Shown here: piece by piece, positions 1-26,469 of the stretch
How positions within the stretch are numbered: position 1 is the stretch's first letter
Layout: each line of letters opens with the position of its first letter
From: a virus
Lineage: Duplodnaviria > Caudoviricetes
Virus record (IMG/VR): IMGVR_UViG_3300048592_000249
Location: 1-26,469 of that record
DNA length: 26,469 bases
Reading direction: 5' to 3' (one strand)
The notes under the pieces: generated by a model
What the model saw: the letters and a program-made list of their open reading frames with translations, nothing else
Databases searched by the model: none
Told to the model about the DNA's origin: nothing
Made by a program: the position numbers and the translations under genes

Positions 1-277
1 ATGCTCTACAACTGCTCCTCGCTGCAGTCGCTGCCTGCTGGCATGACGTTGGGCGCGGTGACCAACGCGAGCAGCATGCTCTACGGCTGCTCCTCGCTGC
101 AGTCGCTGCCTGCTGGCATGACGTTGGGCGCGGTGACCAACGCGAGCAGCATGCTCTACAACTGCTCCTCGCTGCAGTCGCTGCCTGCTGGCATGACGTT
201 GGGCGCGGTGACCAACGCGAGCAGCATGCTCTACGGCTGCGCCTCGCTGCAGTCGCTGCCAGCTGGCATGACGTTGG
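1..277 (+). repeat. Tandem 75-bp coding repeat, about 3.7 copies visible
   Basis: Units start at 1, 76, 151 and 226. Units 1-3 are identical except codon 4, which alternates AAC/GGC. Confidence 0.95.
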
Positions 278-522
278 CGGCATGCACAACGACGACGAGC
301 GCATTTAGCGGATGTACGTCCCTGCAAGCGGCCGATGGCATGGCAATCCCCGAATCTTTCTCCATCGCCTCATGCAACTTCGACGCCGCGGCACTGGATG
401 CGCTCTATACCGCATTGCCAACGGTTACTGGCAAGACCCTCACTGTGACCGGCAACCCAGGCACTAGCGGCGACACCCCATCTATCGCGACGGCCAAGGG
501 CTGGACCGTTGCCGGGAGTTGA
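1..522 (+). CDS. C-terminal part (5' truncated by the window) of a leucine-rich 25-aa-repeat protein, BspA/DUF285-like
   Basis: Repeats MLY(N/G)CSSLQSLPAGMTLGAVTNASS, followed by the cap ...LDALYTALPTVTGKTLTVTGNPG...IATAKGWTV seen in phage LRR-type proteins. Confidence 0.75.
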   Translation: MLYNCSSLQSLPAGMTLGAVTNASSMLYGCSSLQSLPAGMTLGAVTNASSMLYNCSSLQSLPAGMTLGAVTNASSMLYGCASLQSLPAGMTLAACTTTTSAFSGCTSLQAADGMAIPESFSIASCNFDAAALDALYTALPTVTGKTLTVTGNPGTSGDTPSIATAKGWTVAGS

Positions 523-4484: not shown

Positions 4485-4715
4485 ATGGCCAAGACCGCAA
4501 GACCCGCCGCGCCCGGCCTGGTGTGCGTGCAGATGCGCTGCTCCGTGGTGCTGGGCAGTGCAGATGCGCCGCAGACTTACCACGCAGGCAGCCAGGCCAG
4601 CGTGGAACAGGCAGATGCGCAGCGCCTGATCGACCTGGGCGCGGCCATCCGCGTCGACGCCGACGAACCGTCCGCTACCGCGGAGTCCGCCGCGGCCGGC
4701 GAGGTGGCGCAGTGA
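4485..4715 (+). CDS. Small head-associated protein (gpFI position)
   Basis: GGAG RBS; directly follows the capsid gene; AQRLIDLGAA motif. Confidence 0.7.
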   Translation: MAKTARPAAPGLVCVQMRCSVVLGSADAPQTYHAGSQASVEQADAQRLIDLGAAIRVDADEPSATAESAAAGEVAQ

Positions 4716-5005
4716 TCGATGCCGACCTCGCCACGTTCTTCGATGTCGACGAGTTCGCGCGGGAGTTCACGAGGGCTCGCGCCGCTGCGGCCGATCTCGT
4801 GTTCCCGGGCATCCTCGGCGTCGTCGATGAGCATGTCTTCGACTCGCACGCCACCGTGACCATGCGTCGCCTGCGGTTCGCCGCGGCGCACGATGTCCAG
4901 GCCGGCGACACCATCACCGATGGGGTCTCGTCCTGGCTCGTCGAGCGGGTGGAACTGCGCGTCGAGGGTAGCGAGGCCGAAGCTGTCTTGGTGATCTCAG
5001 CATGA
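4712..5005 (+). CDS. Head-tail joining protein (gpFII-like, 97 aa)
   Basis: GTG overlaps the upstream TGA, with a GAGG RBS. DLATFFDVDEFA...GDTIT beta-rich pattern. The upstream ATG at 4523 in the ORF track is not used. Confidence 0.75.
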   Translation: MIDADLATFFDVDEFAREFTRARAAAADLVFPGILGVVDEHVFDSHATVTMRRLRFAAAHDVQAGDTITDGVSSWLVERVELRVEGSEAEAVLVISA

Positions 5006-5436
5006 CCCAAAGCACCCGCTACACCATCGGGCAGGCGCTGTTTGGCGTGGTCTCGTCTGTGGCCACGGCCAACAGCGCGGCGGCGGTCTTCAATCCGCCG
5101 CTGCCGCTGGCCAGGCCGCAGTCGAGTCGCACGCTGTTCTTGCTCGATCGTGGCGACCGCCTTCTCGAGCAGCCGCAGCAGCGAGAGAAGCGGCGCTGTC
5201 GCTTCGTGCTCGGCGCGCTGGTGTCGACGACAGACGCGCACGCGGAGGTCGACGAGCTGCACTTCGCCGCCCGTATGGCCATCCAGGCGCTGTGCAGCAA
5301 AGACCTCGCCGAGGAGGCGCACACCGTGCGCGAAACCGAGGTCGAGCCCGAACTGCGCGACTCCGGTGCCAGCGGCGCGCTGCTGCTCAGCGCCTATGAG
5401 ATCGACTATCGCCAGGTCTACCCGGCCGTGCCCTGA
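5002..5436 (+). CDS. Putative tail terminator/completion protein
   Basis: ATGA overlap with the upstream gene; 144 aa; immediately before the tail tube gene; ends YEIDY. Confidence 0.65.
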   Translation: MTQSTRYTIGQALFGVVSSVATANSAAAVFNPPLPLARPQSSRTLFLLDRGDRLLEQPQQREKRRCRFVLGALVSTTDAHAEVDELHFAARMAIQALCSKDLAEEAHTVRETEVEPELRDSGASGALLLSAYEIDYRQVYPAVP

Positions 5437-5466
5437 CCCCTTCCTTCCCTTTTTCAAGGAACCATC

Positions 5467-6222
5467 ATGTCTCTGTCCAATGCACAGGGTTTCATCGGCG
5501 CGTTCGACGTGCTGATGGCCCCCATCGCCAGCAATGGCGACCTGGGTCTAATGAAGAACGTGGGCAACTGCACCAAGTTCTCGATCAAGCCAAACTCGAC
5601 GATCAAGGAGCAGAAGTCGCGCCGGCGCGACACCTACGGCCAGATCCTCGAGACCGTGGCGCTGCAGGAGCCCGGTGAACTGAGCGTCACGCTCGAAACC
5701 GTCAACCGCGACAACCTGCGCTACTGCGTCATGGGTGAAGATGCCACCTACACCCAGACCGGTGCGACCGTCGTCGACGAGGTCGTGGTCATGCGCCTGG
5801 ACGGCTGGGTCCAGCTCGCCGCCGAGGACCTGCAGGCGACGGTGACGCTCACGCACACCAGCGGCACCCCGACCTACGTCGAGGGCACCGACTACGAGAT
5901 CAACCGCCGTACCGGCATGGTCCGTGCCATCACTGGCGGCGCCATCTCCGACGCGCAGTCCTGCAAGATCGACTATGTCAGTAACACGTTCACCGGCGCG
6001 GCCATCCGCGGCAACGTGCAGCCGCAGCTTCGCGTCTACATGAAGCTCGATGGTCTGAACAAGGTCGATGACTCGCTGTACCTGGCCGAGTTCTATGAGG
6101 TCGTGTTGACGCCGTCGGGGGAGTTCGACTTCATGAAGGACGACTGGAACTCGATCGAGCTCACCGGCAAGCTCAAGACGCCGCCGTCCAAGAGCGAGCC
6201 ATTCGTCATCCGCCAGCGCTGA
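5467..6222 (+). CDS. Major tail tube protein
   Basis: AAGGA RBS; 251 aa beta-rich protein (VGNCTKFSI...YVEGTDYEIN...IELTGK) upstream of the tape measure gene. Confidence 0.85.
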   Translation: MSLSNAQGFIGAFDVLMAPIASNGDLGLMKNVGNCTKFSIKPNSTIKEQKSRRRDTYGQILETVALQEPGELSVTLETVNRDNLRYCVMGEDATYTQTGATVVDEVVVMRLDGWVQLAAEDLQATVTLTHTSGTPTYVEGTDYEINRRTGMVRAITGGAISDAQSCKIDYVSNTFTGAAIRGNVQPQLRVYMKLDGLNKVDDSLYLAEFYEVVLTPSGEFDFMKDDWNSIELTGKLKTPPSKSEPFVIRQR

Positions 6223-22292: not shown

Positions 22293-22510
22293 CTGTGCCG
22301 GTTCTGTGCCGGGTCTAGGCCGATTTCCGTCGTGGCGCCGCGCGCAAGTCCTTGATTTCACACGCGCCGTGACGACCGGAACGTCTTGTGATTCTGGTCG
22401 TCGTGGGTTCGAGTCCCATCAGCCACCCCACCGAATTCCCCTCTGAGAGGGGCACTTCGGGGCCGGTTTCGTTGCCCGCCGCGCGCGACGGTTGTGCCAG
22501 AGTTGTGCCG
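22293..22510. other. attP region: paired arm-type repeats, IHF box and core
   Basis: CTGTGCCGG twice (22293, 22304) and GTTGTGCCR twice (22491, 22502), each pair 11 bp apart. AATCAAGGACTTG on the minus strand at 22345-22357 matches WATCAANNNNTTR. Confidence 0.75.
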
Positions 22511-23598
22511 GTGGCCGGCACGTTCCCGGCCCATTCCGCGATGTGGCTGAGCCCCAGGTGCGCGTAGCGCTGCACCATCGCGAGACTGGCCCAGCCGCCG
22601 AGCTCTTGCAGCACCGGCAGCGGCGTGCCGGCCTGGACGTGCCAGCTCGCCCAGGTGTGCCTTAGGTCGTGGAATCGCAGCCACGGCACGCCAGCGCGCT
22701 CGCAGGCTTTGCGCCATGCGTGATTGCTGACCTTTCCGGTCGGTCCCACCGCCTTGGCCCAAGCCCCGTCGTCGAGCCGCTGCCAGTGCTCGACCGGGAA
22801 GACCCAGCGCCTGTGCTGCCCCGTCTGGCTGGCGAGCACCGCCAGAGCTTCGGCGTTCAGCGGCACGGTATGCGTGCGGCCGGCTTTCATCTCGGCGGCC
22901 TCGAACCACGCCAGCGCGCGAGCTTGGTCGATCTGCTGCCACGTCAGCAGCCGGACGTTGCTTTCGCGCAACCCCGTCGCCAGCGCGAACCTGGCCATTG
23001 CCTGCAGGTGGGGGGGTAGCTCGGCGAGCAGGCCGGCCGCTTGCTCGCGGGTGAGCCATGCGACGCGCTTGGTCGGTTCGTCAGCCTTGGCGATCGGCGG
23101 CACCGCCGCGAGCCAGCCGCGGCGGTGCGCGTAGTGCAGGATCGCGCTGAGCTGAGCCATGTGGCGGTTGACCGTCGCGCCGCTGGTCGCCTTCGGCTCG
23201 GGCGCAGGCCGCTTGGCGGCGTGGGCGCGTGCGATCTCGCGGGCGTTGACCGGCTGTGCGCGGCGCGCCTTGACCAGCCGGCGGATCAGATCATCGGTGA
23301 TCTCGGTCAGCAGCTTCCCCTGCAGGTAAACGCTGAGCCAGCGCAGCACGCGCTTGATCTCCTCAATGCTCTTGCGATGCTCGTGCTCGCCGAGCCATGC
23401 CACGACGGCCTGGTCCCAGGTTACGGACGGGGCTTCGCCGAGCCTCCTGGCGCGCCAGAGATCGCGCGCAAGGGTGGCGGCGTATTCCTTCGCCTCGGAG
23501 TGGTCCGAGGTGCCAGTGCTGCGTCGAGCGCGCTGGCCTGCGACCTCGCCGAGGTCAACCCACCACGTGCCTCGTTTGCCGCGCTGATAGAGCCGCAT
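22315..23598 (-). CDS. int: Phage integrase (tyrosine recombinase, 427 aa)
   Basis: GGAGG RBS before ATG 23598; arm-binding-type N-terminus; TGLRESN, RFHDLRHTWASW, LGGW and QRYAH catalytic motifs. Confidence 0.95.
   Translation of the reverse strand: MRLYQRGKRGTWWVDLGEVAGQRARRSTGTSDHSEAKEYAATLARDLWRARRLGEAPSVTWDQAVVAWLGEHEHRKSIEEIKRVLRWLSVYLQGKLLTEITDDLIRRLVKARRAQPVNAREIARAHAAKRPAPEPKATSGATVNRHMAQLSAILHYAHRRGWLAAVPPIAKADEPTKRVAWLTREQAAGLLAELPPHLQAMARFALATGLRESNVRLLTWQQIDQARALAWFEAAEMKAGRTHTVPLNAEALAVLASQTGQHRRWVFPVEHWQRLDDGAWAKAVGPTGKVSNHAWRKACERAGVPWLRFHDLRHTWASWHVQAGTPLPVLQELGGWASLAMVQRYAHLGLSHIAEWAGNVPATGTTLAQPSRAAGNETGPEVPLSEGNSVGWLMGLEPTTTRITRRSGRHGACEIKDLRAAPRRKSA
22386..22430 (+). other. 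attP core: 3' half of tRNA-His(GTG), not a complete tRNA
   Basis: TTGTGATTCTGGTCGTCGTGGGTTCGAGTCCCATCAGCCACCCCA covers the anticodon loop, T-arm, acceptor 3' strand and CCA. No D-arm or 5' acceptor strand lies upstream. Confidence 0.9.
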
Positions 23599-23780
23599 GG
23601 AGCCTCCCGAAATTTGCCGTACTGTTGCCGCAGCCAAGTCACGACGTCATCCTCGACGAGGACGAAAGCGCGGCCGACCTTGGCCGCCGGTAAGCCGCGA
23701 TTGTGGATGCAGTCGCTAACCGTCTCCGCGGTGGTCTTGAGCACCGCGGCTGCTTCGTCCAGCGTGAGCGTGCGGCTCAT
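23421..23780 (-). CDS. xis: Excisionase-like HTH DNA-binding protein (119 aa)
   Basis: LTLDEAAAVLKTTAETV...GLPAAKVGRAFV motif. The ATG overlaps the intI stop; the 3' end overlaps the int start by 178 nt. Confidence 0.85.
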   Translation of the reverse strand: MSRTLTLDEAAAVLKTTAETVSDCIHNRGLPAAKVGRAFVLVEDDVVTWLRQQYGKFREAPCGSISAANEARGGLTSARSQASALDAALAPRTTPRRRNTPPPLRAISGAPGGSAKPRP

Positions 23781-24838
23781 GCGGGGGCATCCAGCGGACT
23801 GCGCACACCTCGCCCGCCCTGGGTCGCGGGCAGAACGTGGGTGTAGATCATCGTCGTTTCGACATCCGCGTGCCCCAGCAGGGTCTGAATCGTGCGGATG
23901 TCGTAGCCGTCCTGGAGCAGGTGAGTCGCGAACGAATGCCGCAGCGTGTGCGGCGTCGCCCGCTTGAGAATGCCGGCTTGGCGCACGGCGCGCGCCATCA
24001 GGCGCTGGATGCCGTCCTCGTGCAGGTGGTGCCGTCGAATCGCCCCGGTGCGCGGGCAGGTGACGTAAGCGTCGGTGGCGAACACCCACTGCCACCGGAT
24101 GTCCTGGCCGGCGCGCGGGTACTTGGCGTGCAGGGCGTGCGGCAGTTCCACGTCGGCGCGGCCGGCGGCCACGTCGAGCTGATGCAGCGCGCGCCGCTGC
24201 TCGATAACTTCGCCAAGCTGGGATGCCAGCAAGCGCGGCAGCATGACGGTGCGGTCCTTGTTGCCCTTGCCCTCGCGCACGGTGATCGCGCCGGCCGCGA
24301 AGTCGACGTCCTGCACGCGCAGGCGCAGCCCCTCCATCAGCCGCATGCCGGTGCCGTAGAGCAACCGCAGCACCAGGCCGCGCACGCTGGACTGCGGGAT
24401 CTGGCGCCACAGCCGCGCCACCTCGTCGCGCGTGAGCACCACCGGCGGGCGCTGCGCCTGCTTGGCGCGCACGATGCCGTCGACCCACGGCAGATCGACC
24501 TGGAGCGCTTCGCGGTACACGAACAGCAGCGCGGCCAGCGCCTGGCGCTGCGTGCTGGCCGATACATCCCGCTCGGTGGCGAGATGGCTCAGGAACTGGC
24601 CGATCTCCGGCGCGCCCATCTCGAGCGGGTGGCGCTTGCCGGCCCACAAGACGAACTGCCGCGTCCAATGCCAGTACGCCTGCTCGGTGCGGCGGCTGTA
24701 GTGGCGGGTGCGGATGGCGCTGACCAGTGCATGCCGCAGGTGCCCGGGCTCGCCGGGCTGCGGTACAGCCCCAGGCGCGCAGGTCGCAGCGCGGCGCGTA
24801 ACGGCCGTACAGGTGGGCGGTGCGAGGGTGACGCTCAT
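23777..24838 (-). CDS. intI: Integron integrase (up to 353 aa)
   Basis: HYSRRTEQAY, STQRQALAALLF, LLYGTGMRLMEG, VREGKGNKDR, the integron-specific insertion LPHALHAKYPRAGQDIRWQWVF, HTLRHSFATHLL, LLGHADVETTMIYTHV and VRSPLD. All catalytic residues are present. Confidence 0.97.
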   Translation of the reverse strand: MSVTLAPPTCTAVTRRAATCAPGAVPQPGEPGHLRHALVSAIRTRHYSRRTEQAYWHWTRQFVLWAGKRHPLEMGAPEIGQFLSHLATERDVSASTQRQALAALLFVYREALQVDLPWVDGIVRAKQAQRPPVVLTRDEVARLWRQIPQSSVRGLVLRLLYGTGMRLMEGLRLRVQDVDFAAGAITVREGKGNKDRTVMLPRLLASQLGEVIEQRRALHQLDVAAGRADVELPHALHAKYPRAGQDIRWQWVFATDAYVTCPRTGAIRRHHLHEDGIQRLMARAVRQAGILKRATPHTLRHSFATHLLQDGYDIRTIQTLLGHADVETTMIYTHVLPATQGGRGVRSPLDAPA

Positions 24839-24846
24839 GGTGGAGC

Positions 24847-24887
24847 GGTGTTACGCCGCGGGTTTGGCGGTCGAATTCGCGTTGGGC
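24847..24887 (+). other. Putative attI site (crossover G/TT at 24881/24882)
   Basis: GTTGGGC core 43 bp upstream of the intI ATG with no attC hairpin of its own. GGTGTTACGCCGCGGG lies 31 bp before the core and resembles the attI1 direct-repeat region GATGTTACGCAGCAGGG (recalled sequence). Confidence 0.75.
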
Positions 24888-25216
24888 GTCTTGCGGCGCG
24901 CCAGCTCTGCGGCGCACATCGTGATGGCGCGTCGAGTGGCTGCCAGGGCATCTGTGCCGTAGGGCTCCACCACTTCCACGCCGTCGCCTTCCTGAGCATC
25001 GTGGTCCCATACCGGCTTGCGCACGATCACCGAATGCTTTGGCTCGTCGTACATCGGGTACGCGGTCACCTGCAGCCCGATACGTACCGCCAGCACAAAA
25101 GCGTCTTCGTTGTTGGTCAGTGGGTTCCACGGCCGCTCGCCAAAGCCGCTCGGCATCACCCACGGATAGGCGTGGCCGTTGGCCTGTGCTGCACGCATCA
25201 ACAGTTCGTCTTTCAT
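24851..25216 (-). CDS. Cassette 1 ORF: phage hypothetical protein (121 aa), possibly NinX/DUF2591-like
   Basis: AAGGA RBS; WNPLTNNEDAFVLAV...AATRRAITMCAAE motif common in phage early-region proteins. The stop codon lies in attI. Confidence 0.8.
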   Translation of the reverse strand: MKDELLMRAAQANGHAYPWVMPSGFGERPWNPLTNNEDAFVLAVRIGLQVTAYPMYDEPKHSVIVRKPVWDHDAQEGDGVEVVEPYGTDALAATRRAITMCAAELARRKTPNANSTAKPAA

Positions 25217-25245
25217 GCTCAATCCTTCTCGCTTCGGACCCTGCC

Positions 25246-25342
25246 GCCCAACTGGTCGGTCGAGGCGACGCCTTGCGGCGTCGCGGTTGTGGTCTGCGAA
25301 GGCTGGTGCGCCGCAAGGCGCGCCTCACCTCCAACGTTAGGC
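25246..25342 (+). repeat. attC site 1 (97 bp)
   Basis: R'' GCCCAAC, 5 nt, L'' GGTCGAGG (extra C), a perfect 12-bp inner stem (25269-25280/25309-25320), L' CCTCACC, 6 nt, R' GTTAGGC. Confidence 0.93.
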
Positions 25343-25343
25343 C

Positions 25344-25586
25344 TCAATGCTTCCGCACCAGGCCCGAGCGGAACTCTTGGCCGTTCGGGTCGATCACGAT
25401 GAACTCGCCGTTCTCCACCCGCACCTCAACATCGACACCGGTCGCGCTCTTGAACAGGCGCTTCACCCCTTCGATGCCGTTGTCACGCGGCAGTGGCGGC
25501 TTTGGGCATTCGCCGCTGTAGCCGTGGAACTTGAACATCTCTTCGCCTTGCGGCATTGGTTCTCCGCACAATTCGCACTTGCTCAT
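25344..25586 (-). CDS. Cassette 2 ORF: small putative metal-binding protein (80 aa)
   Basis: GGAAAGG RBS; CELCGEPMP...FKFHGYSGECPKPPL; the stop is 1 nt from the R' box. Confidence 0.8.
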   Translation of the reverse strand: MSKCELCGEPMPQGEEMFKFHGYSGECPKPPLPRDNGIEGVKRLFKSATGVDVEVRVENGEFIVIDPNGQEFRSGLVRKH

Positions 25587-25622
25587 CTCGTACCTTTCCG
25601 CCAGGCCTCGCCCGGCTCGTTG

Positions 25623-25647
25623 AAAACGCCCACCCTTGCGGGTCGGC
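25623..25647 (-). terminator. Terminator-like hairpin in the cassette 2 leader
   Basis: Minus strand GCCGACCC-GCAA-GGGTGGGC-GTTTT (one mismatch, short U tract). Confidence 0.4.
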
Positions 25648-25684
25648 TTGTGGTTGTGGTCAGGCCCTGGGCTTCGCGCCACAG

Positions 25685-25745
25685 GCCTAACACGTTGGTC
25701 AAGGGGACGTCCACAAGTGGCCGCCCCTTACCGCTGGGGTTAAGC
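25685..25745 (+). repeat. attC site 2 (61 bp)
   Basis: R'' GCCTAAC, 5 nt, L'' GGTCAAGG, L' CCTTACC, 6 nt, R' GTTAAGC. Confidence 0.93.
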
Positions 25746-25985
25746 GTCAACCGGCACGACAAAATGGCGCGTCCAGTCGGTGTCTCGCGGGGCCGACTTC
25801 TTAACCAGCGCCACCAGTTCATCGAAATGCTTTTGCGCTTCGTTCACCTTGTTGCGTGCGTCGGTTTCACTGTTCCGAGCGCGTGCTGTCAATTCGCACA
25901 TCCGGCCAAGGTAATCCTGTGCCGAAGCCACAGCAGCCACAGCGTTTGCAAGTTGTGTGTTCAGGCTCTGCTTTTGTTCACTCAT
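25740..25985 (-). CDS. Cassette 3 ORF: coiled-coil hypothetical protein (81 aa)
   Basis: AAAGGA RBS; the TAA stop is the TTA inside the attC2 R' box. Confidence 0.8.
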   Translation of the reverse strand: MSEQKQSLNTQLANAVAAVASAQDYLGRMCELTARARNSETDARNKVNEAQKHFDELVALVKKSAPRDTDWTRHFVVPVDA

Positions 25986-26016
25986 ATTCGTGTCCTTTGT
26001 GTGTATTAAAAACTCG

Positions 26017-26070
26017 GTTTAACAGGGCAGTCGAGCGGGACGCTACGCGCCCCTCACTTCTGCGTTGGGC
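26017..26070 (+). repeat. attC site 3 (54 bp)
   Basis: R'' GTTTAAC, 5 nt, L'' AGTCGAGC, L' CCTCACT, 5 nt, R' GTTGGGC. Confidence 0.88.
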
Positions 26071-26071
26071 G

Positions 26072-26289
26072 TCACGATTGCGCGTGCTGATCGCACTGTC
26101 GGTATTCGTACCGCTCCAGGCTCATGGCGTCGTCTTGTGCGGCTCGTAGGTCAGTTGCAGCATGGCCTTTGTCAGCTCGCCGTATTCCTCGCCCAGTACA
26201 GCCAGGGCGTGCAGCGGGTCGGTAGGCCAGGTCGGGAACTTCACCGTGGCTCGGGCCACTTCAGCGGTAATTTGGTCAATAACGTTCAT
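26072..26289 (-). pseudogene. Cassette 4 second ORF: MazG-like (NTP pyrophosphohydrolase fold) gene, apparently frameshifted by an internal deletion
   Basis: AAGGAG RBS; ALAVLGEEYGELTKAML motif; stops at 26122 after 55 aa. Another frame continues AMSLERYEYRQCDQHAQS* to a stop 1 nt from the R' box. Confidence 0.6.
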
Positions 26290-26432
26290 CTTTTTTTGCT
26301 CCTTTGCTTTATGTGATCTAGGTCGTGGTCCTGAACCGTCGCAACTGGGTTGCACCTTTGATTGGCTGAGTGTTTTCCGCCGCAGTAGGGGCATTTCGTT
26401 TTTGTTTCAGGCTTGCGGTCAATGGTTGTCAT
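26286..26432 (-). CDS. Cassette 4 first ORF: 48-aa putative zinc-binding peptide (absent from the ORF track)
   Basis: Translated by hand: MTTIDRKPETKTKCPYCGGKHSANQRCNPVATVQDHDLDHIKQRSKKR*. Its TGA overlaps the next ATG (ATGA). Confidence 0.6.
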   Translation of the reverse strand: MTTIDRKPETKTKCPYCGGKHSANQRCNPVATVQDHDLDHIKQRSKKR

Positions 26433-26442
26433 CGCGGCTCGC

Positions 26443-26469
26443 GCCCAACTGGCGCATCAACCCGGACCG
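26443..26469 (+). repeat. attC site 4, left half (truncated by the window end)
   Basis: R'' GCCCAAC, 5 nt, L'' CATCAACC, then CGGAC. The R'' is complementary to GTTGGGC at 26064. Confidence 0.8.

Follow-up and report, generated by a model that had tools for sequence, protein, structure and literature searches.

A probable integron with inverted cassettes among the leftward early genes of a lambda-like phage

Integrons are usually seen as bacterial devices that are sometimes picked up by phages, and the locus described here raises the question of whether a phage may hold such a device for its own use. The locus lies at the end of a stretch of 26,469 nucleotides (nt) from a virus of the Caudoviricetes (positions 1 to 26,469 of IMG/VR record IMGVR_UViG_3300048592_000249; hereafter, the window), where an integron integrase gene, intI, is followed across an attI site by four cassettes with attC sites. 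An earlier note, made from the letters alone, had read the pairing between boxes of these cassettes as a record of insertion events. We consider it quite probable that the element is a complete integron set among the leftward early genes of a lambda-like phage, with inverted cassettes that also occur elsewhere beside other neighbours, acted upon by the phage's own integrase (IntI) and transcribed leftward. By each feature tested the element belongs to the integron family, while its expression layout departs from the canonical one. The established part consists of the anatomy, the polarity of the sites, the unit of exchange, the inversion of the genes, the phage-type cargo, and an IntI in a mostly phage clade under purifying selection.

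Anatomy of the element and its phage

The intI product has all six catalytic residues (R-K-H-R-H-Y, after the list in PMC3053210), and it aligns over its full length with IntI1 and with 2A3V, a solved IntI structure. The attI crossover lies 43 nt from the intI start, no attC hairpin was found to the left of attI, and the site aligns with attI1 at its core and about 31 nt upstream. Position 24881 had been proposed as the attI crossover in the earlier note, and this holds up on two grounds: the core there is conserved across 31 phage sites, and in a pair of related loci the first cassette of one (L007) is the second of the other (L009), behind a new cassette at attI. A 6-bp dyad within attI (window 24850-24881, 30 related sites) shows covariation, with 82% paired and 0 of 500 shuffles doing as well, its structure having been drawn from the same sequences as its covariation test; it could be a protein site or a hairpin. 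As a phage-specific trait the dyad was dropped, similar dyads being found in chromosomal attI sites. Downstream of intI come an excisionase-like gene and then a phage integrase.

By its gene set the phage is of the lambda-like temperate kind, with int and xis, a weakly assigned cI divergent from cro, with operators, and a lambda-type portal, terminase and capsid. A longer contig of 47,138 bp (L001, G001), which is identical to the window over 12,350 bp and is rated 100% complete, is the same phage and presents the whole array. It has, in order, cro and a cI-like gene, operators with a leftward promoter-like site, fixed early genes, nine cassettes, attI, intI, xis and int, and beyond cro lie a DnaB-type gene, the terminase and the portal. 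Eight of its cassettes are whole, and the ninth has an attC ending after R''. Three copies of a single palindromic operator (1583, 2331 and 2354 of L001) adjoin a rightward and a leftward promoter-like site, which have the -10 hexamer and the operator in common. The cargo is of phage type, comprising phrog_5086 twice, a MazG-like gene, phrog_22261 and, in cassette 9, a DNA methylase. LexA-type boxes, searched for in L001 with a general pattern that may not be the host's, number 0 perfect and 9 with one mismatch (6.05 by chance), with none between attI and intI.

The pairing on which the earlier note was built, in which each R'' is complementary to the box that starts its own cassette rather than to its current R' (24881/25245, 25336/25683, 25739/26017 and 26064/26442), is present exactly as described, and apart from the eight boxes concerned nothing beyond 24,700 matches GTTRRRY or RYYYAAC. 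Each R'' pairs with its own start over 8, 9, 5+1 and 8 bases, while pairing with the current R', where there is one, stops after 3, 4 and 3. In the window alone 2 of the 24 possible cassette orders pair at least as well (p about 0.08), which is weak evidence, since the same 8 bases recur in boxes 1 and 4; for the nine cassettes of L001, 24 of 362,880 orders pair as well. When the cassettes are circularised in silico, as had been suggested, the bottom-strand fold improves clearly for attC1 (from -36.0 to -41.7 kcal/mol) and attC2 (-13.2 to -19.1 kcal/mol, with z going from -1.5 to -4.1), and slightly for attC3 (only -10.3 to -11.4 kcal/mol; z -1.3, weak). As a record of insertion the pairing fits, but it is generic to integrons and cannot separate a crossover at R' from one at R''. 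PMC8876359 places the integron crossover between the first and second base of GTTRRRY, so that six of the seven R' bases come from the next cassette, and with attC sites picked regardless of pairing, R'' paired better with its own start than with the current R' in 64 of 74 viral cassettes and in 74 of 92 bacterial ones. The pairing in itself is thus ordinary and left by any integron. The choice between R' and R'' is settled because shared cassettes show which hairpin travels with the gene. Means from the chain walk (9.2 vs 6.4) were left unused, being circular since the walk selects on R-box pairing.

The attC sites vary in length, as the earlier note had it (Table 1). The cassette bodies 1 to 4 have G+C fractions of 0.632, 0.621, 0.531 and 0.563, compared with 0.69 in the backbone, and cassettes 3 and 4 fall below all of about 2,450 equal-sized backbone windows, which bears out the impression that these two are the more AT-rich. 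The suggestion of several donors fits this spread, with the amendment that the donors are likely other phages, given the phage-type cargo.

Gene orientation, exchange and integrase lineage among relatives

Every gene in the four cassettes of the window sits on the minus strand, turned relative to attC and reading in the direction of intI, xis and int and of the phage's leftward early operon. Relatives of IntI came from 71 viral loci, in which attC sites were called by a rule-based scan together with folding. Strict attC sites lie almost always on the strand opposite intI (148, compared with 3 on the other), and cassette chains were obtained in 50 loci, 15 others having too little upstream DNA; some chains of one or two cassettes (L020, L023, L041 and L061) may be wrong. 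The fourth L'' base, used as a test of the extrahelical base, is C in 128/149 viral and 125/148 bacterial sites, and the bottom strand is the more stable in 125/149 viral and 126/148 bacterial sites. A bias of attC recombination toward the bottom strand is described in PMC5027507. The attC sites themselves are unflipped, and their polarity is canonical.

It is the genes that are turned, the main feature of the element and one on which the earlier note is silent. Taking the longest open reading frame (ORF) per strand in each distinct cassette, PHROG families were matched by 49 of 145 inverted ORFs and by 1 of 131 forward ones, so that 49 of the 50 family-supported ORFs run against the canonical cassette sense (along the attC top strand, away from intI). 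L050, an array of chromosomal type, was treated separately; among its 16 cassettes, 3 gave forward matches. A ribosome site and start stand just behind R'' on the reverse strand in 101/148 viral and 24/148 bacterial cassettes; on the forward strand the same test gives 8/148 and 43/148, respectively. In bacterial arrays with related IntIs, genes were scored as forward in 126 cases and reverse in 38. Family matches and ribosome sites were our main tests, orientation by longest ORF being noisy in GC-rich DNA. Where inverted ORFs read over the crossover, AAC is in frame in 59 of 64. Unrelated genes in cassettes 1, 5 and 9 of L001 and in several other loci have a short leader motif in common between R'' and the ribosome site, possibly a trace of cassette making.

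The 49 inverted family matches include 16 DNA methyltransferases, 2 Mom-like and 3 PAPS-reductase-like genes. For the gene of cassette 4, a scan that overlooks some sites showed no inverted-strand attC within 2.5 kb of 73 of 81 relatives, and 8 of 81 stand in inverted arrays; a relative of cassette 1 in Pseudomonas phage Ab31 likewise has no attC found by scan. With relatives mostly outside arrays, the cargo looks like ordinary phage genes packaged as cassettes.

The same cassettes were found with different neighbours, a search that the earlier note had proposed, in two other sequencing studies and, in other orders, in related phages. In run X5, a contig of 1,517 nt matches window 24880-25342 (463 nt) with 1 difference; its flanks are unlike those of the window on either side, the left one reading as an attC end, and the next cassette differs. 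In run X3, from another study, a contig matches 24879-25337 (459 nt) with 0 differences and again has a different left flank. Judging by these two contigs, cassette 1 takes the hairpin of its R'' end along when it moves, and its breaks are at the GTT boxes; cassette 7 of L001 follows the same pattern in X1. Among related phages, L033/L036 and L035 have five cassettes in common end to end (99.5-100%) in arrays of 8 and 10, L013 and L057 have one in common (97.5%), and L014 holds a tandem cassette copy. Similarity to the window begins at 24879-24881 for relatives of cassette 1 (3 of 5 loci) and at 25335-25337 for those of cassette 2 (5 of 5), so that breakpoints fall within a few bases of G/TT. 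Short joints, with sides under 55 nt, were set aside, and no run contained half of the array's words. On this sequence evidence, cassettes move as units with breakpoints at G/TT, as expected of circular cassettes inserted there. Cassette orders do vary, and the earlier note's expectation that variation would break at the GTT boxes stands with a single breakpoint off them. This is a 55-bp deletion in cassette 4 of the window (window 26126-26129; L001 8658-8710), placed at a 4-base repeat, which leaves the MazG-like gene at 55 amino acids (aa) in the window, compared with 89 aa in L001; it may be a real variant or an assembly error. Separately, cassette 6 of the phage array L057 and cassette 1 of L096, a chromosomal-type array in an Accumulibacter metagenome-assembled genome, are 75% alike, in the same orientation to attC.

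In a midpoint-rooted FastTree of 136 IntIs (loci under 270 aa and 8 duplicates left out), a clade of 55 with support 0.997 holds 49 of the 56 viral sequences and 6 of the 80 others, and 5 of those 6 adjoin a phage integrase; the clade excludes both IntI1 and the chromosomal IntIs. The six catalytic residues are kept in 52 of the 55 members, with L060 and L114 lacking the last columns of the trimmed alignment and L114 proving intact on recheck. The ratio of nonsynonymous to synonymous substitution rates (dN/dS) is 0.18-0.28 in five pairs, which places the clade under purifying selection. Of 49 ORFs tested behind intI, 24 match phage integrases, 10 match other phage genes and 15 had no match. 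The nearest IntIs from genomes are 53-62% identical and mostly betaproteobacterial. Five viral IntIs (L051, L053, L055, L064 and L065) lie outside the main clade and group apart, several beside terminase genes and some with inverted methyltransferase cassettes; viral IntIs possibly have more than one origin, this group being a candidate second one.

Proposed mechanism and alternatives

We propose that the phage's own IntI would insert cassette circles at attI and excise them between attC sites, at G/TT. The cargo and intI would be transcribed together from the repressor-controlled leftward promoter, and not from a cassette promoter (Pc) or a LexA-controlled one, which would couple shuffling to infection or induction. 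The Pc gradient would be reversed, with the cassette inserted last at the greatest distance from the promoter. Assuming the origin and the fork direction, the attC bottom strand would serve as lagging template for a fork that runs left from the replication genes, and this would favour recombination; that such placement raises attC recombination is stated in PMC5371416. The cargo, rich in methyltransferases and DNA-modifying genes, may serve as a swappable kit for anti-restriction and host takeover that is shared among phages. A broader reading, which we put forward only tentatively, is that temperate phages have a cassette economy of their own, in which ordinary early genes are packaged behind attC in the direction of phage reading and traded by the phage IntI lineage in lytic growth, as a rapidly changing library of DNA-modifying genes for counter-defence. 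If so, the occurrence of the same gene with and without attC, as among the relatives of the cassette 4 gene, would record the birth of cassettes.

Several results weigh against a phage-run integron of inverted cassettes. No methyltransferase is found among the four cassettes of the window, the only one of this phage being cassette 9 of L001. The repressor assignment in L001 is weak (PHROG E-value about 1e-3; no match in Pfam), and the leftward promoter was absent from the scan output and was read by eye through its likeness to the rightward one; the scan returned 1 promoter and 5 terminators, both at chance level. Of the 56 viral loci with enough upstream DNA, 6 gave no cassette chain. Among the inverted ORFs, 96 of 145 are without a family, and the longest ORF scores 41 viral cassettes as forward and 117 as reverse, so that some arrays may be mixed. 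In the sequencing runs examined there was no excised circle and no skipped cassette of this array, and the X3 and X5 contigs may come from DNA other than phage. Finally, the genome scan covered 12 of 64 parts, with 80 loci kept, which makes the limits of the clade provisional.

The alternative that survives best, unlikely as it seems to us, is that the cassettes and their attC sites are true but are shuffled by a host IntI, with the phage enzyme minor or idle. The phage attC sites have the polarity and size of bacterial ones, IntI1 recombines phage attC sites in vivo (PMC9892861), and a phage array and a chromosomal-type array have a cassette in common at 75% likeness, all of which speaks for such a scheme. 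Against it, the phage IntI keeps its six catalytic residues, as do nearly all members of the clade, with a dN/dS near 0.2, and the phage also keeps its own attI; at this attI L009 shows an addition.

A second alternative gives no role to any IntI: phages would recombine by homologous or Red-type routes, with the attC sites as short linkers common to them. Lambdoid phages do swap genes at short boundary sequences, short stretches are common to the attC ends, and the 55-bp deletion at a 4-base repeat shows other recombination acting here. Yet the breakpoints lie no more than a few bases from G/TT and every cassette retains its own hairpin and pairing box, while exchange over the attC bodies would yield hybrids and destroy the pairing; we regard this explanation as very improbable.

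More doubtful still is a one-time capture of a piece of a bacterial chromosomal integron, carried passively as in the Vibrio and Shewanella cases of PMC9892861. The closeness of mostly betaproteobacterial IntIs and the resemblance of the attI dyad to chromosomal ones agree with it, but the cargo is phage-type and inverted, unlike that of bacterial arrays, IntI falls within a mostly phage clade, and near-identical phages differ in their arrays. Least credible of all is that the attC sites, and not the genes, are flipped, with the other strand used, the crossover at R'' and an ordinary array read backwards: although R-box pairing would be identical under either crossover and top-strand recombination does occur at low rates (PMC5027507), the sites agree with bacterial ones in extrahelical base and strand stability, cassette 1 travels with its R''-end hairpin, which is what a canonical crossover predicts, and attI is at the intI end.

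Known systems and remaining features

The closest known systems are class 1 and related integrons of soil and freshwater proteobacteria. The phage element is like them in its IntI family and catalytic residues, in an intI divergent from attI and attC, and in the anatomy of attC, the G/TT crossover and own-start pairing. It differs in that the cassette genes are on the bottom strand facing intI, with ribosome sites behind R'' and phage-type cargo, in that the intI stop overlaps xis, and in that the newest cassette is farthest from the likely promoter. At only 58% identity to IntI1 and in a separate clade, its IntI does not place it in class 1. Inverted-integrase integrons (Treponema and others; PMC4889954) are similar in having intI and cassette genes co-directional, but there intI is turned relative to attC, whereas here, with intI on the minus and attC on the plus strand, it is the cassette genes that have been turned.

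Qi et al. 2023 (PMC9892861) reported three complete integrons, one In0 and 17 clusters of attC sites lacking integron integrases (CALINs) in 10,705 phages, the complete ones being treated as captured bacterial pieces (Vibrio, class 1, Shewanella). Common to that study and ours are the presence of integron parts in phages and of methyltransferase cassettes, and phage attC sites were shown there to be IntI1 substrates; its main text describes no phage IntI clade, inverted cassette genes or early-operon placement. Phage integrons are thus already known, and the layout with inverted cassettes in an early operon, common to dozens of related phage sequences, did not turn up in the literature searched. 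No paper was found on inverted cassettes or a phage IntI clade in a search that had most subscription journals outside it, and the supplements of Qi et al. may list such arrays.

The left early operon of lambdoid phages has variable accessory genes. The array resembles it in position, direction and gene families, and relatives of the cassette 1 and cassette 4 genes occur there without attC; the difference is that here attC bounds each gene or pair, which moves as a unit at G/TT. A phage IntI lineage with its own attI and with cassettes in the phage direction would amount to a second, phage-run cassette pool, and phage mosaicism would in part have a defined mechanism. With its many methyltransferases, the cargo suggests an equivalent of the anti-phage cassettes that bacterial integrons carry. 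With gene families both free and attC-bounded in phages, the origin of cassettes becomes testable by comparison; de novo cassette formation is called largely unknown in PMC5371416.

Table 1. Features of the integron and adjoining genes in the window
Feature	Position	Strand	Remarks
phage tyrosine integrase (int)	22315..23598	-	PF00589, phrog_1
excisionase-like helix-turn-helix gene (xis)	23421..23780	-	PF12728, TIGR01764 above cutoff
intI, integron integrase, 353 aa	23777..24838	-	stop overlaps xis start by 4 nt; TIGR02249 426 bits (cutoff 265); 58% identical to IntI1
attI	24849..24887	+	crossover 24881/24882; AA and GTT columns invariant in the alignment with attI1 and 30 further phage sites
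cassette 1, 455 bp	24882..25336	+	nearly unchanged elsewhere with other neighbours
cassette 1 gene, inverted, 121 aa (123 from upstream start)	24851..25216	-	phrog_5086; reads over crossover
attC1, 97 bp	25246..25342	+	
cassette 2, 403 bp	25337..25739	+	relatives start at 25335-25337, left flanks different
cassette 2 gene, inverted, 80 aa	25344..25586	-	no family; relatives in 36 viral loci
attC2, 61 bp	25685..25745	+	
cassette 3, 325 bp	25740..26064	+	GC 0.53
cassette 3 gene, inverted, 81 aa	25740..25985	-	stop is the TAA in the core site; two relatives, 51 and 67%
attC3, 54 bp	26017..26070	+	weak fold
cassette 4	26065..26469	+	cut by contig end (490 bp in L001); internally 55 bp shorter than L001
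cassette 4 gene, inverted, MazG-like lead	26122..26289	-	phrog_2831; MazG is the nearest named cluster in the Atlas (0.90; 29% of members)
second small inverted ORF of cassette 4, 48 aa	26286..26432	-	Cys-rich; no family at cutoff
attC4, first 27 bases	26443..26469	+	63 bp in L001

The gene of cassette 1 ends inside attI, its stop lying 12 nt before the intI start; the Atlas has no named family for its product, and a NinX-like match at 0.85 is a lead only. The excisionase frame stays open for 637 codons over all of intI and cassette 1 (23421-25334, minus), probably as a by-product of high GC. A piece of 45 nt within the integrase gene (window 22386-22430) is identical in L060, with the integrase ORF running through it, and is likely the attP core. 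It resembles the 3' half of a tRNA gene, presumably His-like; ARAGORN found no whole tRNA there, and Rfam and ARAGORN gave nothing useful on this piece or on the attC hairpins. At the other end of the window (1-522) lies a gene with tandem leucine-rich-like repeats, inside which both ends of L001 fall.

The last cassette of L001, which carries the DNA methylase, has a perfect R'' with no hairpin behind it (L001 5200-5232) and is likely a fixed anchor of the array. At this same point contigs of X1 and X2 have other letters inserted. Among 50,697 GenBank phages only 9 have a strong IntI-like match. In one GenBank phage, L152 (Virus Rctr41k, 4680-5678), an IntI-like gene stands among small co-directional genes, with 0 strict attC sites by scan. 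A clade member is also present in a cultured bacterium, Aromatoleum toluolicum T (L114, 9119-10993), with an intact IntI, an attI and at least two cassettes with reverse ribosome sites, between an RdgC-like gene upstream and an integrase downstream.

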